IMG/VR virus record: IMGVR_UViG_2935054407_000001
Location: 1-64,000 of that record
Source of the DNA: a virus
Taxonomy: Duplodnaviria > Caudoviricetes
Strand: one strand, 5' to 3'
Length of the DNA: 64,000 nucleotides
Under the pieces are notes generated by a model. The model was not told the origin of the DNA. It made no database searches and saw nothing but the letters and a program-made list of their open reading frames with translations. This document shows positions 7,183 to 56,126 of this stretch, in pieces. How positions within the stretch are numbered: the stretch's first letter is position 1; each line of letters begins with the position of its first letter. Made by a program: the position numbers and the translations under genes.

Positions 7183-7289
7183 GTTGCTACTCCTACACCC
7201 TGCGTCTGCCTTGAGCCGTCAATGTTGCATAAGCTTCCTCACTTGTGCAACATTGGTTTCTCGCAAGTCGGTCCCCACCTGGAGCACAC

Positions 7290-9500: not shown

Positions 9501-9646
9501 AGGCGGCAGCGTACATCACCCGCAATTGCGCAGGGATATGTTCACTACTTACGACTTATTCGCCATTCGATTTGCATTCCCGAATGACAGTGGCTAGATT
9601 CGGACTTAGTAAGTTCGAGCAGCACAGAGTTCAGCGGAGAACCACA

Positions 9647-25078: not shown

Positions 25079-26037
25079 CCCGAATTCCCGTGATTCCGTG
25101 GCTTCCGCAGCTCCGTGACCTTCCGTGAGCTAGCAGTTACGCCGCATCACCGGCCACTGTTCTCACTCTCCGTACTCCCGGCGCGGCTCTGGTCGGGCCG
25201 TCAAGGTACCCCTGCAAGATCATTTAAGGGTGGGGGGGTACCTGTCAAGGCCAAACGCTTGTTACAACGCGTTCTAGACCACCTACGTAGAGCCATTGGG
25301 ACTTGCGAGAATAGCCCTACTCGCACACCGTGCCTGATCAGGTCAAACTACTGAGAGTATTTCGGAAATCCTGTCAAGAGCCCTTCGACCTGCAATGACG
25401 CAGCGTGCATCGACACACAGCGTTAGGAACATTGGTACAGGGAAACGCGCGTGATCCGAACCGGCTACTGTCAGAAACGCCTGACTGAGACCTGTTGCCG
25501 TTGCCTCACTGAGCGGAAATGGGACGCAATCCCCACTACTCAAGTAGGTTAACTGAGCGTTATGTAATGACATTCGCTCAAAGTGCTTGCAGCGCGCTTG
25601 CAATAGCAAGCAGTGCGATCCACGCGAGCCGCGCGACGCGCGCACGGGCGAGACCTCGGCCAATCTCCCTATGCCTCTGTATGCGTCTGTAGTGTCTCTA
25701 TGGCTGGAGTAGGTGTCCTTTAAGGTACTTGGACCTGAGCCCGATTTTCTCGTCTCTATGGTGTGTTGTAGAGGCGTACAGAGGCATTCCCTTAGGGCTT
25801 CCCCGATCCCCCCGAATTCGCGGGCAGGGTGCGGGCGAACGGCAGTGCTGGCACGCGCGAGAGCCGATCCCGCACGCGCCGGAATTCTCCCACGGAATGC
25901 TCGAATGTCCGAATCATCGGTGTGACCTGCGTCACACTTTGAAGATCTTTTGACCCTTGAACAAGATCAAACCAAGCATGTGATTGGTTGGTACACGAGG
26001 GTAAAAGTGCAGGTCACAAGCGAATTTTAGAAATGTG

Positions 26038-26066
26038 TTGACATCTATACTCGAAACGAGGATAGT
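26038..26066 (+). promoter_or_regulatory. Housekeeping-sigma promoter of the rightward operon
   Basis: TTGACA-N17-GATAGT with AT-rich upstream region. Confidence 0.8.
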
Positions 26067-26071
26067 TCTCG

Positions 26072-26910
26072 TTGTGAGGCCAGCGGGACCGGCCACACGG
26101 AGCCTCCCGGCTCCGGACTCGCGAAAGCGGGAACGGGGAAGGTGCGGGCATGAAGCTTGATAACCGCATAGGACGTACGGGATACGGATGGACTCTGTAC
26201 CCAACGACCCCGGCAATATCTGAGATGCTCGCGTTTCAGTCCCCTATGTGTGGACGCGCTAGAGCGGCCGGTGAAAATTCGTTGGACGCCAGAGGTCTAT
26301 TAGGTCACGCACGCCCTGTGTCGGGAATCTTGCGGTTGCTTGAGAATTTAATTTAAGCCTGTTTCTTCGGGCGGGACGCTGCGCTTTATGGCGCGCGGTC
26401 CAGCGCTCGCTGTGCTAGCTGGCAGACCCTTTGGAAAGGTCAAGACCAGTCGGGAAGCGAGAAAGCTGGGACGTGCTACCTAAAATGCGGCCAACGTGTA
26501 AGAACGGGTAGAGCAATACGGACACAGCCTATGTCATGAGCTGTACCTACGCGTTAGTGTGCGCACGGGCAACCGTGTGCCGAGATTTCGCGATGACCGT
26601 ACGGATAACGCGCTTAGATGCGTCTTTCAGCCCAAATTCTGTGGGCAGACGCTAGCGACAGATCACGACGCGAGCGATTACGCGGGCAGGCCAAAGCACA
26701 AGGTCACAGCGTCATAGGTGGGAGTGTCTAGGTACAGAGAACGCAAGCGAATGCGTTCGGGCGAATGCATCGGTAACCCGATGATGTGCACGAACGAAAA
26801 GCCGTAGCGGGTAGCTGTACCAAGCACGCCGGGAAATGGCCTAGCGAACCATTTCCCTGTGTGTTCTCAACACGGGCAACCGCGCGTGTTGGGAACATGC
26901 ACCAAGGCAA
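26072..26910 (+). ncRNA. Long structured leader / candidate ncRNA with boxA-like motifs
   Basis: No credible ORF; many hairpins; TAACCGCA (26161) pairs with TGCGGTTG (26331); TTGCTTGAGAA at 26336. Confidence 0.5.
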
Positions 26911-26930
26911 ATCACAGAAAGGCGGAATAC

Positions 26931-27104
26931 ATGATCACTCTTGAATACAACCCGTATGCGAAGCAATTCGACGTCAAGCGTGATGGCGAATACGTAGGCG
27001 TGGTTCAGGAGAACTATGGCACATACCGTGCCCAAAAAATCGGCGCAGACTGCGCATACACGAAACAGAGCATGTGTGACGCGCTCGACGCAATCAGCGA
27101 ATAA
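26931..27104 (+). CDS. First small early gene
   Basis: CACAGAAAGGCGG RBS then ATG. Confidence 0.7.
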   Translation: MITLEYNPYAKQFDVKRDGEYVGVVQENYGTYRAQKIGADCAYTKQSMCDALDAISE

Positions 27105-27112
27105 GTAGTAAC

Positions 27113-27179
27113 GGCGAAACGCGCGTCTTTCAGACAGGCACGCGTCGTACGTGATTGGTCATCACGTGCCTGATGAGCC
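27113..27179 (+). ncRNA. Type II hammerhead ribozyme HH1 (predicted cleavage after 27146)
   Basis: ggc-GAAAC-stemIII-GUC-gtacgtgat/atcacgtgc-CUGAUGA-gcc. Confidence 0.92.
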
Positions 27180-27220
27180 AAACCGGACTCACAGAGACGA
27201 CACAGAATGAGGGCGACCAA

Positions 27221-27454
27221 ATGGCTAACGGGCATCTGTCCAACGTGCGGGCCGACGACTACATGGGGGTCATCCTCGGAGCCGCATTTTCCGTCGGCTG
27301 GCACGCGGAACAGCAGGAGGACGCGAGCTATGTCCTGACGCGCGGAGACGTGACGGTCACGCTGCCGTACGTCCAGAGCATGCGCGACGCGTTCGACGTG
27401 CTGGCCTTCATCGAGACCTCCGGACTGATGGAGCGCATCACGGGCAGGCGTTGA
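27221..27454 (+). CDS. Hypothetical early protein
   Basis: ATG downstream of HH1. Confidence 0.7.
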   Translation: MANGHLSNVRADDYMGVILGAAFSVGWHAEQQEDASYVLTRGDVTVTLPYVQSMRDAFDVLAFIETSGLMERITGRR

Positions 27455-27561
27455 CCTTCTCCCGCGTTTCCCTGTGTGCTAGCGTCTTTCACACCGGCAG
27501 GCGCTAGCACACCCTTCACACGCTCTGACCTGGCTTCACTGTGCCTGAGAGGCAACCAATC

Positions 27562-27870
27562 ATGATCGTTACGGCTCTGTGGTTTGGCGGCAACGGCTCT
27601 TACAGCCTCCCGGACGCTGACAGCGTCGAACAGTTCACCAGCATCACGCACGCTATCAACACGTTCCGGGAGCGTGCCGAGACGTCGGGCGCGTTCGGCC
27701 TGCCGACGTACTTCGTGAACCGGGAGAACTCCCGTGTGTGCTTCCCGGCCGTGGGCGAGGACTGCACCATGGACGTCTACATCGGGCGTGCTGGCGAGAC
27801 TGCCAACTATCCGGATTTCCGCCTGGCGCTCGGACCGCGCGGCGGCGTCAAGCGAGAGAGCTACGTCTAG
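27562..27870 (+). CDS. Hypothetical early protein
   Basis: WFGGNGSYS...YPDFRLALGPRGGVKRE. Confidence 0.75.
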   Translation: MIVTALWFGGNGSYSLPDADSVEQFTSITHAINTFRERAETSGAFGLPTYFVNRENSRVCFPAVGEDCTMDVYIGRAGETANYPDFRLALGPRGGVKRESYV

Positions 27871-27874
27871 ACAA

Positions 27875-27945
27875 GCCGAAACATGCGTCCTTCACACCGG
27901 GAGACGCGTGTCGTACGGGACTGATCGCCCGTGCCTGAGGATGGC
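27875..27945 (+). ncRNA. Type II hammerhead ribozyme HH2 (predicted cleavage after 27912)
   Basis: gcc-GAAAC-atgcgtc/gacgcgt-GUC-gtacggg/cccgtgc-CUGAGGA-tggc. Confidence 0.9.
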
Positions 27946-27982
27946 AGATCCCCATCACCACACACAGAAAGACGGTACAACC

Positions 27983-28567
27983 ATGCTTCCCGAGGTTGAG
28001 AAGTACTTCGCCGCTCGCGACGCCCGCAACAGCTCCGACTACTGGGACAGGCGCTCGCAGGCGGAGCAGGACAACCCGGTTCCGGCCTGGTCCCCCCTCC
28101 TTCCGAAGGAGGAGAGAGCGGCTTACTACGTGGCGGCAGAGAAGCGTGAGGCTGCCCTCCGGCAGGTGGACAATGACTGGAAAGAGGCGGAAGCGGCTGC
28201 GTTCGATGCTCTCCGCGAATCGGAGAACGCAATGGTCCGCTGGATCGCGACCACGCCGCCGGTCCTCAACGGTTACGAGCACCACGCGCACACGGTTCTC
28301 CGCGCTCTCCCGATGACGCGTGAGGAGATCGAGACGTTCGGCGATGAGCAGGGTTGGTGCGGTGAGTACGGACGTTTCCTGAGGCTGGCCGAAAAGGCAG
28401 GTGTCCTGCCCGAGCAGGCGCCCGACCTGGCCGACATCGAGCCCCTGGTGGACGCGCTTCGGGACTGGTACGGCGGCGGTGCCGACAACACGTTCCGCAA
28501 GATAATCCGGAAGCAGCTCCCGGCGCTGATCGAGAGTGCCCGCGAGAGGGCTGCTGTCCAGCAGTAA
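27983..28567 (+). CDS. Hypothetical early protein flanked by HH2 and HH3
   Basis: CACAGAAAGACGG RBS; 194 aa. Confidence 0.75.
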   Translation: MLPEVEKYFAARDARNSSDYWDRRSQAEQDNPVPAWSPLLPKEERAAYYVAAEKREAALRQVDNDWKEAEAAAFDALRESENAMVRWIATTPPVLNGYEHHAHTVLRALPMTREEIETFGDEQGWCGEYGRFLRLAEKAGVLPEQAPDLADIEPLVDALRDWYGGGADNTFRKIIRKQLPALIESARERAAVQQ

Positions 28568-28568
28568 A

Positions 28569-28640
28569 GGCGAAACGCACGTCTTTCACACCGGGAGACG
28601 TGTGTCGTACGTGGGTGGTGCCCGCGTGCCTGATGATGCC
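28569..28640 (+). ncRNA. Type II hammerhead ribozyme HH3 (predicted cleavage after 28606)
   Basis: ggc-GAAAC-gcacgtct/agacgtgt-GUC-gtacgtggg/cccgcgtgc-CUGAUGA-tgcc. Confidence 0.9.
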
Positions 28641-28681
28641 AAACCGGACTCACAGCCATCACACAGAAAGACGGTAAACAC

Positions 28682-29788
28682 ATGTCTCGCGAGACTGCGC
28701 AGTGGCTCAACACCATGACCCTCATCGGCTTCACCGGCAAGCGTGGCAAGGCGTGGCACTACCGTGCCGACGTCCAGGGTGACGAGAGCAACCACTACGA
28801 CGGCGCCATTCCCGTGGAAGACGTCAAGCGGCGTCTGTTCCACTGGGCGCCCGTCGAGATGCCCGTGTTCACCATCGTCCCCCCGCGTTTCGACCTGGAC
28901 GGCGTCCACCCCGCGCGTATCGTCCGCCTGGACGGGCGTAAGGCCGTTCTCCGGGATGACGAGCTGGCGGCGGCGGGTATCGACCTGACCGGCCTGGACC
29001 TGTCCGGCAACCTGTGGGACCTGCCCGGCATGGACGCCATGGGCATGTTCAAGGACTCGTACCAGCCGCACCCCTACCACGAGTGGCTCGTGCTGAACGT
29101 GGAGCGGATCCTGGACGGGAACCTCTCCATCGGCTCGGCCGGTCTGCTGCGCGGCGGTGCTCAGGCGTGGGTGAGTGTGGAAGTGCCGGACAACATCACC
29201 ACGCCAGAAGGGGTCGAGTTCCGGCCGAATCTGCTGGCGTGCACGTCCTTCGACGGCTCGTTGGCGACCACGTACAAGCGCCACGTCACGGTGGTCGTGT
29301 GCGACAACACGCTGAGCATCGCCAGGGGCGAGAACGGACAGCAGTACAAGGTCAAGCACACGAGCAAGAGCCTCAACCGCATCACTGACGCTCGCGAGGC
29401 TCTGAACATCGTCTACAGCGCTGCGGACGACTTCGCGGCGGAAGTGGCGGAGCTGTGCCGGATCGACGTGTCCGACAAGGCGTGGGCCGCCTTCATGAAC
29501 GAGATCGCGCCCCTGCCCGAGGACCCGAAGAACAAGCGGGGTGCCACCATGGCGGAGAACAAGCGCGCGGAGTACAACCGCCTGTGGAACCACGACGCTC
29601 GCGTCTCCCCCTGGCAGAACACCGCCTACGGCGTGCTGGCTGCGGTCAACACGTACGACCACCACATTGCCACCACGCGCGGCATGAGCCGGGCCGACCG
29701 CAACATGGACAAGGCCGTGAGCGGTGACTTCGACAAGCTGGACCGAAGCACGCTCGCCACGCTGACCAAGGTTCTCGCCACCGTCTAG
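28682..29788 (+). CDS. DUF932 (phage/plasmid TIGR03299-like) protein
   Basis: SAGLLRGGAQAWV, PNLLACTSFDGSLAT, VVCDNTL, TAYGVLAAVNTY. Confidence 0.88.
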   Translation: MSRETAQWLNTMTLIGFTGKRGKAWHYRADVQGDESNHYDGAIPVEDVKRRLFHWAPVEMPVFTIVPPRFDLDGVHPARIVRLDGRKAVLRDDELAAAGIDLTGLDLSGNLWDLPGMDAMGMFKDSYQPHPYHEWLVLNVERILDGNLSIGSAGLLRGGAQAWVSVEVPDNITTPEGVEFRPNLLACTSFDGSLATTYKRHVTVVVCDNTLSIARGENGQQYKVKHTSKSLNRITDAREALNIVYSAADDFAAEVAELCRIDVSDKAWAAFMNEIAPLPEDPKNKRGATMAENKRAEYNRLWNHDARVSPWQNTAYGVLAAVNTYDHHIATTRGMSRADRNMDKAVSGDFDKLDRSTLATLTKVLATV

Positions 29789-29882
29789 GCGGTTCGTTGG
29801 GCACGCGTCTTTCACACCGGGAGACGCGTGTCCTTCAATCCGATGTGACGTCGGTACCTCCCCCAGAAAGGCGGCTCTAACG

Positions 29883-30155
29883 ATGATCAACAGACTGCGG
29901 ACGTCGCAACAGGTGGCTACTCTCCTGCTTTCGCTCGGCTGCACGGGCGTCCAGCAGCTCGCTAGAAAGTGCCCTGTGTCCGCGTACTACAGACTCCAGT
30001 ACCCGCACGCGACGCGAGTGACTGTAGGTCGTTACAACGTGACCCTCTGTTTCGGCAGCTTCAGGTACACCACCATCCCCAATTCCGCAGCCGTGCGACG
30101 GTTCATCGGGGAATTCGACTGTGGCGCCTACCCCGGCTTGATCCGTAAGCCGTAG
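29883..30155 (+). CDS. Hypothetical early protein
   Basis: CAGAAAGGCGG RBS. Confidence 0.65.
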   Translation: MINRLRTSQQVATLLLSLGCTGVQQLARKCPVSAYYRLQYPHATRVTVGRYNVTLCFGSFRYTTIPNSAAVRRFIGEFDCGAYPGLIRKP

Positions 30156-30157
30156 CC

Positions 30158-30406
30158 ATGGCGGCATACCCGCCTGGATTCATTCCCGCGCTTTCTGATG
30201 ACTCGCCGGAAGTCCGGGCGGATGCCGCTCTGTGGATTATCGGGGAACGCGAGACAGAGCTAACCGGCATCGAAGCGCGCATAGAGCAAGAGCGCAACGC
30301 GTCGCGACGGAACAAGCTCCGCACCAAGCACAAAGCCCTACAGAACAACATCAGCGCGTGGCAGGTGTACATGGACGATGGTTGCCCGCGCTACGCACCT
30401 AGCTAA
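30158..30406 (+). CDS. Hypothetical early protein
   Basis: Coiled-coil ORF in the operon. Confidence 0.55.
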   Translation: MAAYPPGFIPALSDDSPEVRADAALWIIGERETELTGIEARIEQERNASRRNKLRTKHKALQNNISAWQVYMDDGCPRYAPS

Positions 30407-30426
30407 CACACAGAAAGGCGGAACAC

Positions 30427-30582
30427 ATGCTCATGGCCCCCCGCAACCGTGGCCGTGTCGGATTCTCCGGCTGCGAATTCACCTGCTGCCCGATCTGGTC
30501 GAACAAGCGGCGCGAGCGGCGCCACATCCGGCGTAGGGAGCGCCAGACGGTTAACCGGATGCTCGTCGCTCTCGACTACTAG
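30427..30582 (+). CDS. 51-aa basic peptide absent from the ORF track
   Basis: CACAGAAAGGCGG RBS; MLMAPRNRGRVGFSGCEFTCCPIWSNKRRERRHIRRRERQ... Confidence 0.65.
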   Translation: MLMAPRNRGRVGFSGCEFTCCPIWSNKRRERRHIRRRERQTVNRMLVALDY

Positions 30583-30643
30583 CCGAAACGCACGCTACGG
30601 CGTGCGTCGTACCGGGATTGGTTACCCGGTACCTGATGACGGC
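30582..30643 (+). ncRNA. Type II hammerhead ribozyme HH4 (predicted cleavage after 30608)
   Basis: gcc-GAAAC-gcacgc(UACG)gcgtgc-GUC-gtaccggg/cccggtac-CUGAUGA-cggc. Confidence 0.95.
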
Positions 30644-30676
30644 AGACCACCGTTAACACACAGAAAGGCGGGAGAT

Positions 30677-31207
30677 ATGGCTCCGCGCATTGACAGGAAC
30701 ATCGTGTTGGTTCTCGACGTCGAAGAGAACTACGGATACGGTCACATTTACGCCAGGCCGCGCGTGGAGAACAACGGCTTTCAGAAGTACGCCGATGCCC
30801 CCGTGTTGCTCTCTCCGGGACTGGGTGACCGGTACGGCTGGGACGAGCCGTACAACCACCTGGGCAACCTTCGCGCTTCGTGCCAGTACGACGTTACCAA
30901 CCGTTCGTGTGTCTACGGCTACGAAATCGAGTACGCCGACATGACCAGGGTCCGCACGCGTGAGGCTGAGGTCATGGCGAAGGCTCTCCGCAAGATAGAC
31001 CGGGAGATGAACAAGCTTCGCGACGCGCACGGCTACCCCGATTCTTATGGGGAGTACCTGGCGCACTTCGCCGCCGCGATCGGATGCAACCGCTTCGCCA
31101 TTAGGCATCGCGAAATGCGCGCCAACGGCACCCACTACCAGTGGTTGGACGTGGCCGGTATGCGCTCGTGGGTCGCACAGCAGACGGCGGACAAGGTGTC
31201 TGCGTAG
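30677..31207 (+). CDS. Hypothetical early protein
   Basis: CACAGAAAGGCGG RBS. Confidence 0.75.
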   Translation: MAPRIDRNIVLVLDVEENYGYGHIYARPRVENNGFQKYADAPVLLSPGLGDRYGWDEPYNHLGNLRASCQYDVTNRSCVYGYEIEYADMTRVRTREAEVMAKALRKIDREMNKLRDAHGYPDSYGEYLAHFAAAIGCNRFAIRHREMRANGTHYQWLDVAGMRSWVAQQTADKVSA

Positions 31208-31347
31208 GCGACGGATCCGATCCGGTCTAGGCGAGCTAGGGGGATGTGCGGACACGCGCCGTGCCTCCCTCAGTTCGATGTGACATCGGACTGCTTAAAC
31301 CCCCATGCGTCTTTCACACAGGCACGGCGCAACACAGAAAGGCGGCT

Positions 31348-31929
31348 ATGACACCTATCCCCCTCCCGATTTCTGGTGAGACGCACGAACGGTTCGTGTC
31401 CAGCATCCTGGACGTCTGGCACAGCGCTACGCCGGACCAGTTGGAGCGTGGAACGCGCTGGTATCCCCAGGCTAACCAGTTCGCCGCCATGATCTCTGGT
31501 GGCGACGTAGTAGCCGGGGCCGGTGTCATCGCTGCCCTGTCCGCCAATAAGCGATGGGACGAGAACACCAAGATTGCGGCCCGCGCTTTCGTGAATGGTG
31601 AACCGTCGGGGCACGTCGGTGATGCGCTCACGAAAGCGGCTCGGATCATGGGCGGTGAGTCACCTTCGGATGTCCTGCCCATGGACGTCAAGACGGGCCA
31701 GTTTTTCCGATGCATCGCTGACCCGACGGACCCTGAGGCGGTCTGTGTGGACCGTCACGCGCATGATGTGGCGGTTGGTCGCCGGTATGGCAGTGCGGAC
31801 CGTGGCCTTAGCTCTCGCAAGCGTTACAAGGCCATTGCGGACGCCTACAGGGAGGCCGCTAGGCGGCTGGGTGTCCTGCCTCTGACAGTCCAGGCCGTTT
31901 GCTGGATTGTCCAGATCGAAGCCAACTAA
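31348..31929 (+). CDS. Phage protein, possibly DNA glycosylase-like (DUF7178-like)
   Basis: GTRWY, GVIAALS..KRWDEN, VCVDRHA, QAVCW. Confidence 0.65.
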   Translation: MTPIPLPISGETHERFVSSILDVWHSATPDQLERGTRWYPQANQFAAMISGGDVVAGAGVIAALSANKRWDENTKIAARAFVNGEPSGHVGDALTKAARIMGGESPSDVLPMDVKTGQFFRCIADPTDPEAVCVDRHAHDVAVGRRYGSADRGLSSRKRYKAIADAYREAARRLGVLPLTVQAVCWIVQIEAN

Positions 31930-31947
31930 TCCAGAAAGGCGGATGAC

Positions 31948-32379
31948 ATGCCGTACACGGCACATGGTCACTGGTTTGGCGACGGTGAGCCCACCGGGCC
32001 TAGGCCGGACAGGGTCACACGGTGCAACGGACTGCACGGGTGCCCGCAATGCAAGATGGATGCCGAGCTGGTCTCGATGCTCGCGAGTCCTAAAAAGGGA
32101 ATCGCTCTCAAGTTCGGTGACCAAATTTCGAACGGTGCTCACGTGCTGGCCTACACCGGCATCCACAGCAGCACGAGGATCACACGCGCGGTTGCGCTGT
32201 GCTGGTGTCCAACGCGGAAAGAGTTCGTGATCTGGACCATCGAATACGGATACGCCGACCAGGGCGAAGCCTGGTACGCACACAACGGCCACCGCGCGGG
32301 ACAAGACCTCGCCTATGCCCTGCTGAGCTATACGCAGCAGGCCGGTCCCGGCGCCTCTCTCCCGAATTTCATCTACTAG
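31948..32379 (+). CDS. Hypothetical early protein
   Basis: RBS; RCNGLHGCPQC. Confidence 0.7.
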   Translation: MPYTAHGHWFGDGEPTGPRPDRVTRCNGLHGCPQCKMDAELVSMLASPKKGIALKFGDQISNGAHVLAYTGIHSSTRITRAVALCWCPTRKEFVIWTIEYGYADQGEAWYAHNGHRAGQDLAYALLSYTQQAGPGASLPNFIY

Positions 32380-32450
32380 GCGAAACGCGCGTCTTTCACA
32401 CCGGTAGGCGCGCGTCGCGTCGGGAGTCGTTACCCGATGCCTGATGAGCC
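32379..32450 (+). ncRNA. Type II hammerhead ribozyme HH5 (predicted cleavage after 32416)
   Basis: ggc-GAAAC-gcgcgtct/aggcgcgc-GUC-gcgtcggg/cccgatgc-CUGAUGA-gcc. Confidence 0.93.
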
Positions 32451-32478
32451 AGACCACACAGAAAGAGGGCACAGACCC

Positions 32479-32829
32479 ATGAGCAACACCGCTAAGCAGA
32501 TCCAGGTTGGGACGCACGGCAAGGGCCTGCGGGCGCTGATTGAGGCCCTGGAGACCTGCACTCCCTTCAAGACGGCTGGTGCCTTTCAGGCCATGGCTGG
32601 CGTGCCCTCCGGGACCGGCCGCATGCCGAAGGATGAGCGCGAGCGTTTCGAGACCGACCGACCGCAGATCACGTACACCGTTCTTTCGTACGCCACCCCG
32701 ATTGCCTGGGTTCTGGAGAACGGAGAGACGTACGTCTCTGACACCTATTACTCACCCACGACGACCAAGCACCAGAGCCGTGTTCGCGTGTATCTGAACC
32801 GCGCAAACGTCATTGACGAGGCTGCGTAA
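32479..32829 (+). CDS. Hypothetical phage protein
   Basis: YTVLSYATPIAW...YSPTTTKHQS. Confidence 0.75.
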   Translation: MSNTAKQIQVGTHGKGLRALIEALETCTPFKTAGAFQAMAGVPSGTGRMPKDERERFETDRPQITYTVLSYATPIAWVLENGETYVSDTYYSPTTTKHQSRVRVYLNRANVIDEAA

Positions 32830-32897
32830 CGGTCGTGAGCGCTTCTGACATCGCCCGGAAATCCGGGCGGTGTTGGTGGCACGGCGAACGTGTCAGA
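32830..32897 (+). repeat. 68-bp intergenic structured repeat, copy 1
   Basis: Near-identical to 33500-33567. Confidence 0.9.
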
Positions 32898-32927
32898 CCT
32901 AAGAACATACACAGAAAGAGGGTTGTA

Positions 32928-33497
32928 ATGCTCACAGAGATCCGTGCCATCGCTACCGATGTTGCTCGCGAGATGGGTAACTGGACCATTCGCGACGGCT
33001 ACATGAACGGCCAGTTCTTCATCGCCGACGAGAACAAAGAGCTGTGCCTGATGTTCGATCTCACACACGAGACGGGCAGGCTCAGCATCAGTGCCTCGTA
33101 CCCGAAGAATTCCAGTGTGGTGCACGGCATCAAGGGCTACAGCATCCGCGTGTCTTACAAGCGCGGCGCGGTCGTGATCGCACGGGAGATCAAGCGGAGG
33201 TTGATGCCTGACTACCTCCGCGAGCTGGAGAGCGTTGTCACACGGATCGCCGCTCACGAGGCGGAGGAAAGGCGGCAGGCGACCATAGCGCAGACCGTCG
33301 CAACGGCGCTTGGTGTCGATTGCCCGGAGACCGTCCACCCATCCGGAGTCTATGTCCGTAGCGGCTGGTGCGGTCCGAAGGCGCCCGTTACACGCTCGGA
33401 ATTCCGCGTCATGTCCGGTAGCAGCGTGGCTATCGAGATCAAGACGGATGGTGAGGTAGCCGCAAAGATCGCCGAATTCCTTCGGACTCTTATGTAG
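32928..33497 (+). CDS. Hypothetical early protein
   Basis: ACAGAAAGAGG RBS then ATG. Confidence 0.7.
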   Translation: MLTEIRAIATDVAREMGNWTIRDGYMNGQFFIADENKELCLMFDLTHETGRLSISASYPKNSSVVHGIKGYSIRVSYKRGAVVIAREIKRRLMPDYLRELESVVTRIAAHEAEERRQATIAQTVATALGVDCPETVHPSGVYVRSGWCGPKAPVTRSEFRVMSGSSVAIEIKTDGEVAAKIAEFLRTLM

Positions 33498-33499
33498 TG

Positions 33500-33567
33500 C
33501 GGTCGTGAGCGCTTCTGACATCACCCGGATTTCCGGGCGGTGTTGGTGGCACGGCGAACGTGTCAGA
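33500..33567 (+). repeat. 68-bp intergenic structured repeat, copy 2
   Basis: Near-identical to 32830-32897. Confidence 0.9.
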
Positions 33568-33591
33568 GCAACACGCAGAAAGGCGGGACAG

Positions 33592-34191
33592 ATGGGATCG
33601 ATTGGACTTCACCGCGAGCCTGGCATGACCGATCGGGAATTCTTCGAGAAGGAGTTCCCGAACATGCTCGGCAAGTATGGGCAGATCGTGGCCTGTGCTT
33701 CCAACCCCGCTGGTGGCGATTGGAACCGTGCTTTCTATGCGGCGGTCACCAACAACGATGACGCGTCGTATAAGCCGGGCGAGACGTGGGCGTTGGTCGT
33801 GCTGATGCGCAACGACCGTAAATCGTCGGGCGGGTGCAACTTCTACTACAAGGACTTGGACGAGACCATGGGGCCGGTTGAAAGCACCTGCCCGGACCGG
33901 ATTCTTGACCTCCTGTCACCGACCGAACATGCAGGGGCCACCAGGTGGCGAGAGCGCTGCCGTGCCCACAATGCCCGCCTGGACAAGGCGCGGAAGCTCA
34001 CCGACGGTCAGATCATCCGCTTCACCAACCCCATGCCCTTCGGTGAGCCGTATGGAGAGGCTCAGCGCTTCCGCTACCGGAAGGCGGGGCGTAAGTCGGT
34101 CCTTGAAGCGATCACCGATGACGGGGAATTCCGCTTCCGTGCCCGGATTCCCGGCTGGCGCGCAATGTCATTCGAGATCGAGAACAACTAG
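33592..34191 (+). CDS. DUF6927-like protein
   Basis: FYAAV, FYYKDLDETMGP...CPDRILDLLSPT...WRERC. Confidence 0.75.
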   Translation: MGSIGLHREPGMTDREFFEKEFPNMLGKYGQIVACASNPAGGDWNRAFYAAVTNNDDASYKPGETWALVVLMRNDRKSSGGCNFYYKDLDETMGPVESTCPDRILDLLSPTEHAGATRWRERCRAHNARLDKARKLTDGQIIRFTNPMPFGEPYGEAQRFRYRKAGRKSVLEAITDDGEFRFRARIPGWRAMSFEIENN

Positions 34192-34207
34192 CAGAAAGAC
34201 GGTAGTG

Positions 34208-36918
34208 ATGGACATCCCCGCTCTCCTCGTACGCATGGCGCGCAGCGTTCCCCGGCACGACAATGCCCGAATGATTATGTGGACGGCACACGAGGCGGTG
34301 AACAACACGTCTGACCTGGTGGATGGTGCACGGGCAGCGCTGGCGTACGTGTCAACGCACATCGGCGATGCTCCCGGACAGTCCAGGGATGAGCTGCTAA
34401 ATGACGCGGTTGCGGTGCTCTCCCTACATCTGGCGCTGCACACCATCGCCGAAAAGTACAAGTAAGGGAAAGGCGGGAGTAATGCCAGAGCGGCGCAAGG
34501 CGACCACGAAATACACGCTCGTACAGCACAGCGGGAGCACATCGCATGCGGAATTCCGGCACGCGGTAGAAGTGCTCTCCGTCTCGACGCTCACGGAACA
34601 GGACAAGATCGAAAAGGTCGGCGGCCTGCTGTTCGAGAGCTGGGAGGAGGCGGACAACAGGGAGTACGAGGAGAACTACCCGCCGGGGGTTACCGGGCTC
34701 TACCCGCGCGTGCCCGGCACGTTCCGGACCGATCTGAAAATCGATGGGTTCAACCTCTACATCCCCGCTGCGAAGAACGACACGGAAGGCCAGTGACCAT
34801 GCCTCTTACCGCCCCCGAAAAGCGAGCCATCAAGCGGGCTTACCGCTGTGTCGTGATGCTGAACGAGCACACGCCGGAATGGCGCGGAATGGTGGACAAG
34901 GACACCCTTGCCATGCATCACACGAGCCGCTGTGTGTTCGGCCAGGTGTTCGGCGACTTCAACGAAGGGATCGACGTGCTGTCCCTGCACGGTTGCGACG
35001 AACCGCAGCGCTACGGGCTGGATCTCGACGTGAGGAACGACGTCATGTACCCCGTGCTGGACACCGCCTGGCGGATCGTGCTTGACCACCTGGACGCGCG
35101 GTCGGCCTAGCGGATCCTCTGGTCCCCATGCCTGCCAAATATCGGGGGCGGGCATGGGCGGCCGGGGCGTCCGCTTGGACGATCACCACCACACACACAC
35201 AGAAAGGCGGGAGATGGGAAGGCACAGCAGGAACCGATCGCCGTACCCGGCCAGCAGCACGACCCCTGACCGCTCACAGGTCACGGAATCTGAGAGCGAG
35301 GCTCTCGTCCGGCTCGCTGCTCTGGTCTGTCACAACATCGCTACCGGCTTCGCTCCGGAGCGGGCTGTGGAGGCGGCTCTCCGTTCCTTCGACGACCCCG
35401 AAAGCGTGGTCGAGCTGTGGGCAGCGGTCTGGGAGCGCATCAAATCTGAAGACACCGAAAGGCGGTAGAACCATGACCTACAACCACGCACGCATGACGG
35501 ACGCGGATCGCGCTAGGAACACCCGCACCATCACGAACAGGCTCATCCATGCATGGGAGATCATGAAGGCCACGGGTCCGGTTTCTGGCCCAGCCGACTA
35601 CTACACTGGGATGTCCACCGCGTACGAGGCGTTCACCGGCTGCAACCCCGTAGCGCTGTCGATGGCGCTGGACGACAACCGGAAGCGCCACGGCAATCTG
35701 TCGCTCTCCGATCGGGCTGACAAGCTGATCGAGTCCTTGTCTCTGGCCGAGGTCTTCCCCTACCTCAAGGACGGGGACGCGTGATGACTGCATACGAGAT
35801 CGCTGCTCGGGCCGCTTTCTTCGCCTCCCAGCGCGCGACACAGGCGACCGTGGCAGAGCTGCACAGGTGGGAGCGCGCGGCTCGGCGCTCTGGCAACCGC
35901 GAGCACGTCAAGGAGATCCGGCGCGAGGTGAGGCGCATTCGCGCTACCAAGCGGCTCTCTCTCATCAAGCACGGCGGCGCGTGGGCCTGCTTCGACAACC
36001 GCACGGGGTCAGTCTGCGAGACCTTCGCTTACCGCATGGACGGCGCGACCTACGTCGAGTACTGGAACGGCCAGTACCACAAGCACACGTCCTAGCGGAT
36101 CCTCCGATCACCGCGCGTCTTTCACACCGGTAGAGATGCGCGGCCGGTCGGGGCGTCCGCTGGGGCGATCACGACCAACACACACAGAAAGGCGGGAGAT
36201 CTATGCGCTTCTCCTACATCAACGAGGACTACATGCGCGAGCGGTGGCCGGTCGGCTGCCGAGCACGGCTCAAGAGCCTTCCGGGGAACTCGACCACCCT
36301 GACGATCGCCCCGCACGCGGAGACGAACTCCCCCTACAACCTCCGCTACTCGACGCGGACCAAGAGCGGTCCGGCGGTCAACATCACCTACCCGAAGTAC
36401 TGGCGGAACCGCAAGGGCGGCTGGGTGTTCGCCGCAGCGCTCCGACTGATCGGTAAGTGCGCTGACGGTACGTGCAACCACGCGGAAAGGCGGTAGATCC
36501 GCGTGCACTGTGACCGTTGCGGCCGAGAGCTGCGGGCCTGGCCGTTGGAGCGCGGAAGCCGTTGCAGCCCCAAGCGGTGGACGTACTGCATCAGGCCGAA
36601 GAGCGACTGAGACTCCCCAACCGCACACAGAAAGGCGGTAGTTCCACCATGCCTAAGATCCTGATCGCCACCGACAAGGCTCCGCAGAGCAGCGTCCCCA
36701 ACGTGCGCGGGATGAACTGGGTGGCCCGTCGCGCCGCCATCATCCGCGCGGCCTTCCACCTGGAGAGGCAGGAGCGGGCCGTGCGGGCGCTGATGGCGAT
36801 GACCTTCGACGGCGACGAGCGGATCAAGCTCAAGGCCCTGCTCCAGCAGATCCAGGCGGACATCCGGAGCATCCACGTCTACGCCAAGGCCGGTTATCCG
36901 TCTGTCCGGGAGATCTGA
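34208..36918 (+). other. Run of small early genes (34208-34465, 34482-34796, 34793-35110, 35214-35468, 35473-35784, 35781-36095, 36203-36496, 36503-36610, 36649-36918)
   Basis: Most preceded by GAAAG(G/A)CGG; 36503-36610 is a 35-aa Cys peptide absent from the ORF track. Confidence 0.7.
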
Positions 36919-37692
36919 GTGCGCGCCCGGTTTCTCTGTGGTGCTCCGGAGTTGAGTTGGGCCGAAGATCACGGCGACATCGGGCCGCTTTTCATCAGCT
37001 TCAACCGCATTTGCCGATTGAAGTTTCGGCCCATCGATGTCACCACGGATTTCGCTATCGACAGTGGCGGCTTCACACAGCTTTCCAATGGCGGTTGGCC
37101 GGACGGCTGCGAAGAGCCCTACATCGCGGCGATTCGCAGGCTCAAGCGCTTCATCTGGAGAGGCGGCCACCACCTTCTGTGGATCGCTCCGCAAGATTGG
37201 ATGTGCGAGGAAGAGCAGCTAGCCAACACTGGTCTTACGGTGCTCGAACACCAGAGACGCACCGTGCGGAACTTCGCCCGGCTCACTCAGCTTGCCCCCG
37301 ATCTTCCGTGGGCCATGGCTGTGCAGGGTGATACGCCGAGAGCCTATCTCCGCATTCTCGACATGTACGCAGACGCAGGAGTCGATCCCCTCGCACAGAA
37401 GATCGTTGGCGTCGGTTCCATCTGCCGAATTCAGCACACGGACAAGGCCGTCGAGATTATCGAGACCTTGCACGATGCCGGACTGCGGAAGCTACACGGA
37501 TTCGGACTGAAGACGGAAGGGCTCGCGAAGGTCGGGCATCTCCTCACCTCCGCCGATTCGATGGCCTGGTCTGAGCATGCCCGCAAGCAGAAGATCCACC
37601 TTGACGGGTGCTCGCATAAGCGGTGCGTCTCCTGCCCGAAATTCGCCAAGCAATGGCGAGACAACCTCATCAATCGCGGGCTCGCTGCCTAA
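36919..37692 (+). CDS. Queuine tRNA-ribosyltransferase-like / DpdA-like protein
   Basis: FAIDSGGFTQL, APQDWMCE, VGVGSICR, LHGFGLK, SADSMAWS. Confidence 0.8.
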   Translation: MRARFLCGAPELSWAEDHGDIGPLFISFNRICRLKFRPIDVTTDFAIDSGGFTQLSNGGWPDGCEEPYIAAIRRLKRFIWRGGHHLLWIAPQDWMCEEEQLANTGLTVLEHQRRTVRNFARLTQLAPDLPWAMAVQGDTPRAYLRILDMYADAGVDPLAQKIVGVGSICRIQHTDKAVEIIETLHDAGLRKLHGFGLKTEGLAKVGHLLTSADSMAWSEHARKQKIHLDGCSHKRCVSCPKFAKQWRDNLINRGLAA

Positions 37693-37720
37693 TCGTTCAC
37701 ACAGAAAGACGGTAATAGTC

Positions 37721-38236
37721 ATGTCCTTCTACCCCTATGAGCTGTGCGTGACGCTCCGATCCCAGAACCCGGATGACACGGATGAGATGTCGGTTGATCT
37801 CCTGGCTGTCGAACTGGACGAGTTGAAGGCTGCGGTTCTCAGTACCTTCGGCGGTATCTACGTCGAGGTGGACACGGACGACGGCAACTGGGAAGGCGTC
37901 CAGGTGTCCGGGACCACCATTGAGCAGCTCTGGAAGCTGGCGAAGCTGGCCACCGAGTCTCGTGACGCGAACTGCTTCATGGCCTGGGCGGGCATCCTGC
38001 CGGGCGGGCTCGCGAGTCTTGACCCGGAAACGGCGATCAGGGACTTCCGTAGGGAGTTCGAGGGCGACTACGAAGACCTCGCTGAATATGGACACACCCT
38101 CATGGAGGACGAAATCCGGCACATGCCCATCCTGGACCAGTTCTTCAACTTCGCGGAGTACGGCAAGTACGTCGCCGCTGACCACCGGGTTGTCGAGCTG
38201 TCCACCGGCCGCATCGCCGTCTTTGGGAAGGGCTGA
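37721..38236 (+). CDS. ArdA-like antirestriction (DNA mimic) protein
   Basis: Acidic; DFRREFEGDYEDLAEYG...QFFNFAEYGKYV...AVF. Confidence 0.7.
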   Translation: MSFYPYELCVTLRSQNPDDTDEMSVDLLAVELDELKAAVLSTFGGIYVEVDTDDGNWEGVQVSGTTIEQLWKLAKLATESRDANCFMAWAGILPGGLASLDPETAIRDFRREFEGDYEDLAEYGHTLMEDEIRHMPILDQFFNFAEYGKYVAADHRVVELSTGRIAVFGKG

Positions 38237-39901: not shown

Positions 39902-42900
39902 GTGTCCGACAACGAGCACGGCGAGCTGGAAGCCTGGAGCAAGTACTACATTCTGGGCGACGACGAAGAGGCCGTTCTCCACTGGAGCACGAACGACGAC
40001 GGCGACACCGGCTACCCCGGCACCTTCGCGAGCGACAGTCGCTCCTTCCACAGGCGTGAGGACGCGACCGCGCTCCAGCAGGCCGTGAGACACGCGGGCG
40101 GTGGCTCCCGTCAGGGGATCGGCCACAACGTGCACGTCTACATCAACGGCGAGGAGTACAAGGGCGGCAAGGACTGCCAGCCGGAGCCCTCTGCTCCTGC
40201 CCCGCTTTCGGCTGAGTTCGTGATGGCTATGGCTGGTGCCCTGGTCGCGGGGAAGACCGGCGACGGCACGGCCATGCTGAACGCTCTCCGCGAGATCAGC
40301 CCGGAGGACCGGGAGCACCTGCTGTGGATGTGCGAGCAGGTCATAGCCGGAATCGAGCAGTTGAGAGAGGACGACTAGTGAGCAGCGAGATGCGCGTCAG
40401 GATCGTAGAGACGACGGTTCCCTGTCCCGAGTGCGGTAAGCCCGTCTGCAACCTGTGCGCGTTCAACCAGATGTGCCAGCACTGCAAGAACCCGCTCGAT
40501 GGCGAGACCCTACAGCGGGCGGAAGACGAGCTGGAAGCGATGTTCAGGAACGAGGCGCAGAGTGAGCAGTGACAAGCCTTTGGTGGAGGTCGAAGTCGCC
40601 GACCCCATGGCGGGCGACACTGAGCCGTCCATCCGCTACACCACCCGAAATCGCGTAGCTCCAGGCATGTCGCAGGGTGGGCACGTCAGCGCGGAGACGG
40701 CGCGCGCTCTGATCACGGCACTTCGGTACGGGCTCCAGATGATCGAAGAGCGGAAGCCCAAGAAGCCGAAGGACGACGTACCGCGCTGTGAGGATGACGG
40801 CTGGGTGCTGGAGGCCAGCGAGGACGCTACCGGCAAGATCCTCTCGTGCCCGCGATTGAGATGCGGGTTCGTCTGGGAGGTGCCGGGACAGGCAACGGAA
40901 GAGCAGTGGAACAAGGCATGGGAAGCGGGGCGCGTCTAGTGAAGAAGATCCACCGTAGGCACATCACGGAGGCCCTCGGTAACGCCGGTATCGATCACAC
41001 CGCCGAAATTCTCAACTCCCACGAGTCGCCCACCGGCCGGGTTGGATTCGGCATCGAATTCAAGTCCTACGGAGACGCCACCAAGTTCTTCGTCGGCCTG
41101 GGAATGTTCCTTTACGACGACGCAGACGAAGAACTTGCTTACGAACTGGCGGGCGCTGTGGCGCTGGTAAACACAGCCAGGACCACGATCTTCTTCTTCC
41201 CCGGCTGGGAGCTGGAGGACTGATGTCTGAGAAGAACGAGGTGACGGCCGAGGAACTAGCTGCGCTCGACGCCGTGTGCAAGGAAACCGGCCTGGTGGAA
41301 GGGTGGGAGTACTTCAACCTGTTCCGCAAGCGCGGCAACCCGGACATTCAGGTGGTCGGTCCGTTCAACTGGCCGCACCGGATCCCGCGTCCGAACGTCA
41401 AGCTCGTACGCCGGAAGAAGGTCACCAGCTACGGGAAGTTCGAAGCAGTCCAATTCGACGTGAACGGTGACGCTATCGAGGACACGCCCTTTCATGCGTT
41501 CGTGCGCTGGATCGCATCTCTGGACGATCCGGAAAACGCGGAAGAGCGGCTCGGCGTAACGCCGTCCGAGATCATCGCCAAGGCCACCGCCATAGTGAAA
41601 GACGCGGAGAACAACGAGTGAGCCGAAGGGTGCTCATCTGATGGACGCCATAGACCGGGAACACGCGATCTACGCGGCGGAGACCACTTCCAACTGCCCC
41701 AAATGCGATACGAGCAAATTCAGCATCGTCCCCAATTCTCCGCGCGCATTCTGCGAGCCCTGCGGCTACACGTGGGTACTCGGGTCGGAGCTGTACTCCT
41801 GTGCCTGTGCGAAGTTCATCGGCAACAACGACCAGGCCATCATGCACATCCGCGAAAACGGCGGCTGTGAGACCTGCCTGGGCACTGGCGAGGCCACCCC
41901 GATGGGCGGGGCGCACGGTCACTGCACATCGTGCGGCGGCTCGGGGCGGGGCTACAACGGCATAGAGGAGACCGTGACACTCACGGTGACGCTCAGGGTT
42001 CACAAGAACCCATCGGCCGAACCTGCTCTCGGTGTCGATGACCAGCCTGCCGAGTTCATCGCAAAGGAGTTCGCGGATCGTGTGCGCCTGGCCTTACAGG
42101 ACGAGATCAAAGAACCCGTTCTCGAACGTGTCCTCGTAGGCACGCTGAGGCAGGGTAGCGGCTCCTTCACCCTGTACGACGGCAGGGTGGCGCGCGTGGA
42201 AGTGACCGCGAACAGGGTCCGAGTGGAGGACGCAGCGCGATGACGTACTACGACAAGGAGTAAGTGATGGGCCACGAGCTGCACGTGACGACGTGCTACA
42301 ACCCCGTTTGCCGGAAGGTCTTCGACTTCGATCCCGAGACGGTCAATTCGGTCTTGGTCGATCCGGAAACCGGTCTTCCACCGGACACGGATCCAGAGAC
42401 GCGCACGCCGACGCGCACGCCGACGCCGGAGGAGCTGGCGCGGTCGGAGCGGATGCCGATCTGCCCTGAATGCGCTAACAAGATGCGTCGGAGAATCGCT
42501 CGTGAGCAGAAGCAGGGCTGAGTGAGCGCCTTTGTCGCCCGAATTCGGGGCGGGCGGCATTGGGGTCTACTCAGGTCATCGAAAGGAGCTGCTATGGGCA
42601 ATCACTATGAGGTGTCCATCGAGGTCGAAGGTAGGCGCATCGACATCGCGCAAGTTCATGACGATCTGGAAGCCAAGCGCATGGGTGCCAACATCGCACA
42701 ATCCTACAAGCCCGAAGTTCGTGAGTGCCGCTGCGACGGCATTCTCTTCTGATCAGGGAGAACTGATATGACCGAACAGCCTGAACAGCGCATCATCGAA
42801 TCCGTTAGCCGGAAGGAGGATGTCTCGGAGGAGGACGCTAAGCGCATTCTTGAGGCGATCTATTCGGGTAGTCAGTTGCGATGCGAGACCCTCCGCAAGT

Positions 42901-54857: not shown

Positions 54858-55171
54858 AGCGAGATCTCCGATTCGGGAACGTACTGGATTCCGTAGTAGC
54901 CGCTTCGCTTAACGCCTCGCCAAATCCCATAGACGTTGCCGAAAATGATGTTCCGGTGCTTGATGAGCCGGTCGAAGTCGGACCAGAACATCGGGTAGCG
55001 GAGGCCGTTCACGCCGCGCCAGTAGATCGTCATGGCCGACCGGCCACGCGTGTATCCGTCGTACTCAAGGGTTCCCTCGAACGGAGCGAGCGGACGGCGC
55101 TCCGCGACACCCCACGATGTGTCGTGGCGCATGTTGCCCTGCTCGTCGAAGGGAACGTTTTCCAGGATCAC
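54854..55171 (-). CDS. Hypothetical phage protein
   Basis: Coupled ORF. Confidence 0.65.
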   Translation of the reverse strand: MILENVPFDEQGNMRHDTSWGVAERRPLAPFEGTLEYDGYTRGRSAMTIYWRGVNGLRYPMFWSDFDRLIKHRNIIFGNVYGIWRGVKRSGYYGIQYVPESEISL

Positions 55172-55848
55172 GCCGCCTCCAGCAGGTTCTTGGCACGATT
55201 CATGAGCCTGGCGGCATTGCCGTGCCAGCTCTGGTCACCGTTGGACCGCAGCCAGGTCCCGGAAGCCAGCTCTTCGAGCAGCTCGCGCAGCGGCCGGTTC
55301 TGCTCGGCCTCGTAGGCAGTGAGGAAGTCGCCGATGGTCTTGTTCCACCGGGCATCGTGAAGCGCGTGGTGGACGATGGCCGTCTGCGCGTCTTCTGCCT
55401 GCTGCGGGAGCGCCGGACGGCCGAGCCGCTTCCACTCCGTCATCAGGTCGTCTGTCTGCATGGGGATGCCAGAAGGCAGGTCCAGCATCCGGCCGAAAAT
55501 CTGGGCCAGGCCGACGTGGTCATACGCGCTGTAGTAGGCCCACAGCTCCGGGTCCGGCGTCTCGGCCACGAAGGCGGAGATGGCCTTGCGCAGCTCGTTC
55601 CGGTACATGACCTTGGTCATGTCCGGGTGCTGGAAGTCCCAGCACTCCCAGCCGTCGGTCTCGGGCAAGCGCACCGGCAAGTGCGGAGCGACGTTCTCTC
55701 GCAGGAACGTGTGATCGACCAACGCGTGATACGGCAGCTCCGCGTTGATCGCGTACAGCTCGCGCCCGTCGTCGGCGACCATTCCGATGCTGATGAGGTC
55801 GATGGTCCGGCCGGAGTCGAAGAACTCCAGGTCGTAGTAGATCCTCAT
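55168..55848 (-). CDS. DEDD 3'-5' exoribonuclease (Rv2179c / RNase AS-like)
   Basis: IYYDLEF, LISIGMVADDGRELYA, WAYYSAYDHV, HHALHDARW. Confidence 0.88.
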   Translation of the reverse strand: MRIYYDLEFFDSGRTIDLISIGMVADDGRELYAINAELPYHALVDHTFLRENVAPHLPVRLPETDGWECWDFQHPDMTKVMYRNELRKAISAFVAETPDPELWAYYSAYDHVGLAQIFGRMLDLPSGIPMQTDDLMTEWKRLGRPALPQQAEDAQTAIVHHALHDARWNKTIGDFLTAYEAEQNRPLRELLEELASGTWLRSNGDQSWHGNAARLMNRAKNLLEAA

Positions 55849-56126
55849 GCGCTCGCCTCCTGCTCGGCGTCCTTCGGAAGGATGAAGCGGTCGGTGACGT
55901 CCACCCAGCCGGAAAGGCCGTAGAAGATCGCGGTACACGCCGCGTACACCTTCGTTCGGGCCAGCTCGGCGTCCGACATGCAGTTGAGGCGCTGCTGGAC
56001 GTGGGCCTTGGTCGTGTAGGGCCGGTCGCGGTTGCTGCCGACCAGGAGGTAGATGGTCGCGGGCAGCTTGTCGTCTACGATGCGCGGCGCCTGGTAGAAG
56101 GGCGGCATCGGGAGGAGCTGGGACAT
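55845..56126 (-). CDS. Hypothetical protein
   Basis: AAGGA RBS then MSQLLP. Confidence 0.6.
   Translation of the reverse strand: MSQLLPMPPFYQAPRIVDDKLPATIYLLVGSNRDRPYTTKAHVQQRLNCMSDAELARTKVYAACTAIFYGLSGWVDVTDRFILPKDAEQEASA

Follow-up and report, generated by a model that had tools for sequence, protein, structure and literature searches.

A repeated 68-nt intergenic element in an actinophage operon looks like a transcript punctuation hairpin rather than a new ribozyme

Between the cistrons of the early and late mRNAs of phage T7 lie hairpins that are processed by RNase III, and the rpsO-pnp hairpin is a bacterial case. Promoter-stem-loop (PeSL) cassettes sit at the mosaic junctions of T4-type phages. 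The relevant passages of Perreault et al. 2011 (PMC3088659) describe hammerhead ribozymes on either side of single prophage genes and infer that long phage transcripts are cut to gene-length mRNAs. For the Cluster K mycobacteriophages, the passages of Pope et al. 2011 (PMC3203893) on start-associated sequences (SAS) give a 13-bp consensus, GGGATAGGAGCCC, located 3-8 bp before starts. The same passages describe extended SAS (ESAS), which are imperfect inverted repeats with 17-bp arms that lie upstream in many copies and whose function is unknown.

The window analysed here covers the first 64 kb of a 108,967-bp record (63.4% G+C). At its left end, a tRNA gene with an adjacent tyrosine integrase is accompanied by a second integrase, HTH regulators and an Lsr2-like protein, and further in DpdA (7-deazaguanine DNA modification), ThyX and RecA are encoded; these genes indicate a temperate actinophage. 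The features at 176-1531, 1640-1714, 6848-8485, 9572-9982, 22766-23128, 36919-37692 and 55171-55938 of the window comprise the integrase by the tRNA gene, the second integrase, the Lsr2-like protein, a ProQ C-terminal-like protein (22766-23128), DpdA and an Rv2179c-like 3'-5' exoribonuclease. All genes from ∼26.9 kb to at least 38 kb lie on the + strand, and a scan of 26-39 kb gave one sigma-70-like promoter match on that strand, at 26038-26066. Five type II hammerheads were located within 6 kb in successive intergenic slots of this one operon, and most of the longer intergenic regions of the + strand stretch carried conserved structure. The hammerheads, graded by the Rfam gathering score, were:

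27112-27183, + strand: type II hammerhead, below the gathering score
27874-27953, + strand: type II hammerhead, above the gathering score
28568-28644, + strand: type II hammerhead, below the gathering score
30581-30651, + strand: type II hammerhead, above the gathering score
32378-32458, + strand: type II hammerhead nearest the element, in the preceding intergenic slot, above the gathering score (42.4 bits; gathering score 37)

The element occurs in two copies, W1 and W2, with the following neighbours:

32479-32829, + strand: 116-aa gene (phrog_32689), upstream of W1
32830-32897, + strand: element copy W1, 68 nt, directly 3' of the TAA stop of the 116-aa gene (model R1, 98.6 bits)
32912-32922, + strand: conserved ribosome-binding motif CAGAAAGAGGG, ahead of the 189-aa gene
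32928-33497, + strand: 189-aa gene, between W1 and W2, with an orthologue (52% identical) in a Nonomuraea provirus
33500-33567, + strand: element copy W2, 68 nt, 2 nt past the TAG stop of the 189-aa gene (model R1, 95.5 bits)
33576-33587, + strand: matching ribosome-binding motif, 3' of W2
33592-34191, + strand: 199-aa DUF6927 gene, downstream of W2

An earlier note on this DNA had reported a near-identical 68-nt element in two copies right behind stop codons, in the slot that the hammerheads occupy, and this description was confirmed by the sequence, a repeat search of the window and BLAST. The copies formed repeat family D7 (n = 2, 68 nt, 96% identical, 670 nt apart) and matched each other with E = 5.7e-27 in a BLAST search inside the 108,967-bp record, which gave no third full copy. 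W1 and W2 were identical at 65 of 68 positions, and the three differences, a G>A at position 24 of the element and AA>TT within the loop, were those given before. W1 begins on the first base past the TAA at 32827-32829 and W2 two bases past the TAG at 33495-33497. The order is that of the type II hammerheads, with the stop codon, the element and then 8-14 nt to CAGAAAG (14 nt from the end of W1, 8 nt from the end of W2); across three copies, including the provirus copy described below, this gap was 6-14 nt. Ribosome-binding motifs of the AGAAAG type were present at 17 sites in the record, 16 of them between 26.9 and 37.7 kb. The extended motif, with a consensus of approximately ACACAGAAAGGCGG, precedes 16 starts at 26916-37703 and also recurs in the Nonomuraea provirus.

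Two GTG-started open reading frames on the + strand (32835-33497 and 33505-34191) cross W1 and W2 in frame with the next gene and, except for two residues, have a common N-terminus of 21 residues. In the provirus copy GCG stands in place of the GTG start and the frame is out of register with the downstream ATG, and the substitutions within the GTG-started frame all alter the amino acid. An N-terminal coding extension was therefore ruled out: the start is lost, the frame is off in the provirus, and there is no synonymous pattern.

The search for homologues found a single one, at L005:10574-10641 in the provirus of Nonomuraea sp. SYSU D8015, directly 3' of the orthologous 189-aa gene, so that W2 is the copy in the orthologous position; the predicted nested hairpin was kept in it. 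The 189-aa protein itself had only two homologues among 5.8 billion proteins, the closer of which is the one in the Nonomuraea provirus. The two phages are collinear here, with 13 of 24 window genes having provirus homologues at 38-88% identity, and L047 of IMG/VR, which matches L005 exactly over 3 kb, represents that same provirus. No homologue of the 116-aa gene was present in the compared syntenic stretch of the provirus. Streptomyces phage Comrade encodes a homologue of it (38% identical), and the Comrade intergenic regions held ordinary hairpins and neither a hammerhead nor the element. Compared with the provirus, the window phage has additional sequence at 31948-32829, where the DUF7178 and 189-aa genes are separated by a 143-aa gene followed by a hammerhead, the 116-aa gene and W1; W1 therefore lies at an insertion edge. 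The distant Saccharopolyspora relative has a simple 8-bp hairpin in the same slot. At that locus, a stretch ∼5 kb upstream of the distant 189-aa gene homologue (L006 4521-4969) contains three tRNA genes and an abiF RNA match (44.2 bits).

The provirus element was identical to the window copies at 61-62 of 68 positions (90-91%), compared with 64.2% for the adjacent orthologous gene, 79.0% for the DUF7178 gene and 64.2% for the third codon positions of the latter. The probability of at least 61 identities in 68 was 1.7e-6 given the third-position rate of 0.642, a significant excess, 0.026 against 80% and 0.13 against 84%. Seven other pairs of intergenic elements of both phages were 67-84% identical; among them, the orthologous hammerheads, at 77%, were less conserved than the element. 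Judged by this comparison and by the folds described below, the element is a real, selected RNA-level element of the sense strand, and part of its high identity could come from recent phage-phage exchange instead of selection.

Further searches enlarged this set by no copy. With blastn, region 32300-34200 had no match in GenBank phages, and the 75-nt element region matched, at E <= 10, only parts of 10 records, over no more than 51% of the query and chiefly in the palindromic top of the hairpin. Exact patterns in IMG/VR hit the known provirus and, by chance, L051 and L052, the latter inside a 688-aa ORF. IMG/VR scans anchored on three single proteins gave no relative, and a scan with the DUF7178 alignment found L047, the known provirus again. 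A gapped pattern was present in 32 metagenome stretches, none of which contained the rest of the element. Model R1, run over 151 genomes of the Nonomuraea family, scored 99.2 bits on the provirus and 34.1 bits on the next hit, a generic hairpin; an R1 hit in L021 was rejected because it falls in a coding region. Among 110 genomes of the genus, blastn matched the full length in the provirus only, and nine others matched 22-33 nt of G+C-rich sequence; among 401 genomes of the order, the provirus was the one match. The provirus host genome held no additional copy. A 16-mer of the ribosome-binding motif occurred in 16 IMG/VR stretches, with several matches per stretch in the known provirus only, and R1 was negative in the other 15. 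Within these searches, the element is known from two phages only, in three copies.

The predicted fold divides the element into the following parts:

32830-32844, + strand: 5' leader of W1 (element 1-15), paired with 49-61 as basal and middle stems in the nested fold
32845-32876, + strand: hairpin HP1 of W1 (element 16-47), 14-bp G+C-rich stem with a 4-nt loop, -25.0 kcal/mol alone
32877-32895, + strand: element 48-66 of W1, the 3' strand of the basal and middle stems or hairpin HP2, invariant in three copies
33515-33546, + strand: HP1 of W2, with one A-C mismatch

The RNA of W1 folded with -36.7 kcal/mol (z -4.0, 0 of 200 shuffles as good) and that of W2 with -31.3 kcal/mol (z -2.9, 1 of 200 shuffles as good). 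The RNAalifold consensus of the three copies was one nested irregular hairpin of 25 pairs, with internal loops of only 1-2 nt, that spans from the stop codon to just before the ribosome-binding site. Over the three sequences 74 of 75 pair cells were standard, the exception being the pair broken by G24>A in W2. Five pairs were changed on one side with pairing kept: A/G at -1 with U62, U7>C opposite G55 (U-G to C-G in the leader of the provirus copy), A19>G opposite U44, U45>C opposite G18 and G46>A opposite U17. All three changes in the HP1 stem of the provirus homologue are still paired, and the HP1 loop reads AAAU in W1 and AUUU in W2. The covariation check thus yielded changes that fit the nested hairpin and no pair changed on both sides, a value equalled by 500 of 500 shuffles; with three copies in two phages, covariation has little power. 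Except for position 68, the variable positions all lie in stems or the apical loop, and the bulges, internal loops and tail (62-67) showed zero variation. This conservation of primary sequence exceeds what a plain structural hairpin would need. The fold is also polar: the complement of W1 reached -25.5 kcal/mol, 11 kcal/mol worse than the + strand, and all five non-Watson-Crick pairs of W1 are G-U on the + strand, with no A-C pair, which suggests that the structure acts as RNA and not as a DNA palindrome.

Two alternative pairings that had been proposed before can indeed form in the window copies, as TCTGACA (15-21) with TGTCAGA (62-68) gives seven Watson-Crick pairs and GTCGTG (3-8) with CACGGC (51-56) gives six pairs including one G-U. 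As the main fold, TCTGACA/TGTCAGA was not supported, since forcing it cost 9-14 kcal/mol relative to the nested hairpin under nested-only energy rules, with the pseudoknot estimated by hand. The proposed pseudoknot fared poorly against the provirus copy, in which U7>C turns U7-A52 of GTCGTG/CACGGC into C-A and A68>C breaks the end pair of TCTGACA/TGTCAGA; 57 of its 60 pair cells were standard over the three sequences. A19>G is tolerated by both the nested and the pseudoknot model.

A diverged relative of the element was detected further downstream:

42518-42575, + strand: diverged paralogue X, with the GUGAGCGC leader and G+C hairpin in common with the element and without its 3' part

With filters off, R1 matched 42518-42580 weakly (13.4 bits, E 0.11). 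The local alignment of X with the element scored 39, a value that none of 2000 shuffles reached (18.2 ± 3.6), and 11 other intergenic regions scored 14-22. X begins at a stop codon and precedes a ribosome-binding site; it does not contain the GGCACGGCGAACGUGUCAG part of the element, including the GGCGAAC region. Its consensus is again a long hairpin, of 19 pairs, with the upstream stop codon in the basal stem. The provirus counterpart (L005:19242-19298) was 53 of 58 identical, and the genes upstream of the two are unrelated. Between the two phages the basal stem of X contains one compensatory change, U-A>C-G, and the internal-loop bases vary.

The element and X thus persist at ∼90% identity beside genes that are unrelated or poorly conserved, W1 sits at the edge of a block inserted before the 189-aa gene, and element 48-66 is a 7-N5-7 inverted repeat at the DNA level too. 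These features would fit a mainly DNA-level function, as a recombination junction or module boundary or as a protein operator, or else a recent duplication with no RNA function. We consider a DNA-level account quite unlikely, since the substitutions keep the RNA pairing, the five wobbles of W1 are G-U and never A-C on the sense strand, the complement folds so much worse, and the identity is far above that of synonymous sites.

No known RNA class was recognized in the element. Rfam 15, run over 26000-38000 at E <= 5, placed no family on it, ribozymes included, and a run over 32800-33600 at E <= 10 with the most permissive filters gave four matches, all with E > 2 and none to a ribozyme family. 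In particular, no HDV, hammerhead, twister, twister-sister, pistol, hatchet or hairpin ribozyme model matched it at E <= 10; RF02276 and other hammerhead models matched the five other window sites and not the element. The hammerhead core comprises CUGANGA, GAAA and a UH cleavage site, connected by three stems. A degenerate hammerhead was ruled out by the core, as the element has CUGACAU in place of CUGANGA, and GAAC in place of GAAA followed by a stem. An integron attC site or a MITE was ruled out by inspection, which showed no core sites and no target duplications.

HDV-like ribozymes are defined by a nested double pseudoknot, with a short P3, a conserved L3 joining the P1 3' strand, and P4 before J4/2; J4/2 holds the catalytic cytosine, and they are cleaved 5' of P1. 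The element resembles them in the string GGCGAAC, which the earlier note had likened to the J4/2 strand, and in the order 5'-a, 5'-b, hairpin, 3'-a', 3'-b'. The likeness did not hold: RF00094 and related HDV-like models were negative and the double-pseudoknot geometry is absent. That a canonical HDV fold does not fit, as the same note had conceded, is clear from the 14-bp hairpin with a non-conserved tetraloop in place of a short P3 and L3, the lack of a P4, the ten nucleotides between the hairpin and CACGGC, and the C-A at P1 pair 7-52 in the homologue.

A new class of small self-cleaving ribozyme, replacing the hammerhead in these slots, would nevertheless account for the position of the element, for primary sequence conserved beyond the needs of the stems and for alternative pairings that could form a pseudoknotted core. 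It also speaks for this reading that previous ribozyme classes were discovered as motifs in the neighbourhood of genes associated with hammerheads. However, the comparative data favour a plain nested hairpin with internal loops of 1-2 nt only, the one informative substitution breaks the proposed P1 helix, and X keeps the hairpin without the candidate core and varies in its internal-loop bases, all of which weaken the case. In addition, no known ribozyme model matches, and the element is carried by two phage lineages only. We therefore regard a new ribozyme as very improbable. Equally improbable, in our estimate, is the form in which the invariant leader, the GCGAA region and the GUGUCAG tail would make up the core of a self-cleaving ribozyme, or of a nuclease-independent switch, around a peripheral hairpin.

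The element was also compared with transcription signals. A promoter was ruled out, since the scan gave no sigma-70-like site on the element and inspection gave no conserved -10 hexamer. As a leaky terminator or attenuator, the G+C-rich hairpin would pause or release RNA polymerase and create an expression gradient along the operon. HP1, with 14 bp and -22 to -28 kcal/mol alone across the copies, has the hairpin that an intrinsic terminator requires and comes directly after stop codons, and the simple hairpin of the Saccharopolyspora relative lies in the same slot. Actinobacterial terminators are often reported without U tracts, a further point for this reading. Still, a U tract is absent 3' of both hairpins, where HP1 runs into UGGCACGG and the full hairpin into GUGUCAGA, and the terminator scan, which returned seven terminator-like sites, placed none on the element. 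Since the scan of 26-39 kb showed no sigma-70-like promoter further downstream, two terminators within 670 nt would leave over 10 kb of downstream + strand genes short of transcription, and the invariant unpaired bases would be left unexplained. Termination is, on balance, doubtful.

Besides the nested fold, the element can form two consecutive hairpins, HP1 and then HP2, a 7-bp stem (48-54 with 60-66) that has a GCGAA loop and uses the GUGUCA tail. In all three copies this form lay 1.8-2.8 kcal/mol above the nested fold (nested/two-hairpin -36.7/-34.9, -31.3/-29.5 and -41.3/-38.5 kcal/mol). The near-equal energies, together with the invariance of the unpaired bases and the GCGAA loop, are what would be expected of a binding site or conformational switch in which a phage or host protein, or a terminating ribosome, picks one of the two forms. 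A ribosome at the adjacent stop codon would presumably cover the leader and favour the two-hairpin form. The 'b' elements of the same operon (see below) likewise have a long hairpin followed by a short one, and the phage encodes the ProQ C-terminal-like protein mentioned above. The proposed targets are antitermination, translation of the next gene or mRNA decay; for none of them do we rate a switch as anything but unlikely. By eye, no examined fold pairs the ribosome-binding motif with the element, and HP2 is invariant, so that no variation bears on it. Moreover, nut and put sites sit near promoters, whereas the single provirus copy lies more than 5 kb past the start of its operon.

Several other intergenic structures were recorded in the two phages. 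The provirus has three type II hammerheads, at L005 5389, 6167 and 8424. The stem I half of the window hammerhead at 32378 is nearly identical to that of a provirus hammerhead at a different locus (L005 8426-8509), and hammerhead halves therefore appear to have been shuffled. An unclassified motif family, 'b', occurs at 35111-35192 and 36096-36178 in the window and at L005 11856-11932 and 13775-13858. The family combines a CGGRUC leader and an AUCAC tail with a long hairpin, the top of which is exchangeable, and a 5-bp hairpin next to it (CGUCC-GCUN-GGRCG); its four copies have 24 predicted pairs, six of them with compensatory changes, and gave no Rfam match. Repeat families D3-D5 correspond to a hairpin module, GCGUCU-loop-AGRCGC, whose loop contains a conserved ACCGG motif. 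This module stands alone at 27475-27504, 29798-29827 and ∼31300-31330, and is contained in the hammerheads at 27874, 28568 and 32378 (stem III) and in the 'b' copy at 36096-36178. The provirus has its own loop variant of this module, which may be a protein-binding module. A further unclassified block (CUAGGCGAGCUAGGGGGA ... CCUCCCUCAGUUCGAUGUGACAUCGGAC) is conserved at 31208-31347 of the window and at L005 7433-7581 and 9240-9397, with ∼70% identity between the phages.

Taken together, these data make the element look more like a signal that punctuates the transcript than like a new ribozyme. The explanation that we tentatively prefer is an intercistronic processing and stability hairpin that is cut by a nuclease, in parallel with the hammerheads. 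The earlier note had offered a nuclease processing site as one option; what was observed here is the repeat with its conservation, its nested fold and its polarity on the sense strand, whereas the cutting and the cutter are what we infer. The element would act in cis as an RNA structure on the sense strand of the long early polycistronic transcript, where an irregular hairpin of ∼25 bp would start at the stop codon of the upstream cistron and end a few bases before the next ribosome-binding site. A double-strand-specific host nuclease of the RNase III type, or a sequence-specific factor, would cut in or beside the stem. The hairpin would then remain on the upstream mRNA as a protective 3' end, and the downstream cistron would be freed with an accessible ribosome-binding site. 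The type II hammerheads nearby would achieve the same by autocatalysis.

This nuclease-cut hairpin is preferred because W1, W2, the provirus copy and X all run from a stop codon to a ribosome-binding site, and because they belong to a setting of a single + strand operon with one promoter match and five hammerheads in neighbouring slots; the transcript is demonstrably built for ribozyme cutting at neighbouring junctions. It is further favoured by an element identity above that of the flanking genes and third codon positions, and by a nested hairpin that is kept, has its wobbles as G-U on the sense strand and finds a counterpart in the long hairpin of X. The predicted duplex of 25 pairs between cistrons compares with ∼20 bp or more in RNase III-type hairpins. 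The strict sequence conservation points to a specific partner and, with the near-isoenergetic two-hairpin form, keeps the switch, terminator and DNA-level readings alive.

The early operon is unusually dense in conserved intergenic RNA structures, with five hammerheads, the element, X and at least two further motif families, all of them better conserved than the genes they separate. It is thus a compact natural test bed for how a phage splits one long transcript into separate mRNAs, and for whether ribozymes and nuclease-dependent hairpins substitute for each other. Should self-cleavage occur, the element would represent a new class of ribozyme in a phage operon set up for single-gene mRNAs; otherwise it is one more phage punctuation hairpin, whose main value would lie in the strict sequence conservation.

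Compared with the known systems, the element shares with the T7 RNase III hairpins an irregular hairpin of ∼60 nt with small internal loops, repeated between the cistrons of one polycistronic phage transcript, after stop codons and before the next ribosome-binding site. It has no sequence relationship to the T7 or rpsO-pnp hairpins, its host is an actinomycete, it is more conserved in sequence than structure alone requires, and its cleavage is proposed from sequence and predicted fold. With the type II hammerheads it shares the operon, the slot and the presumed purpose, but not the hammerhead core. Like PeSL cassettes, it belongs to short conserved intergenic stem-loop modules that persist while flanking genes swap; unlike them, it contains no detectable promoter, and it comes from an unrelated phage group. 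The Cluster K SAS and ESAS, as far as they are described in the passages cited above, are likewise actinophage sequences with an extended ribosome-binding motif, in some cases accompanied by a conserved inverted repeat, beside different gene families. Their consensus is GGGATAGGAGCCC and not ACACAGAAAGGCGG, and the 68-nt element is present here in two copies as opposed to many, so that membership was rejected and the SAS/ESAS serve as an analogy only. By sequence, the element is a member of none of the T7 RNase III, hammerhead and SAS/ESAS families. By analogy, its nearest functional counterparts are the T7 RNase III sites and the prophage hammerheads, and its nearest genomic pattern is that of the SAS/ESAS.
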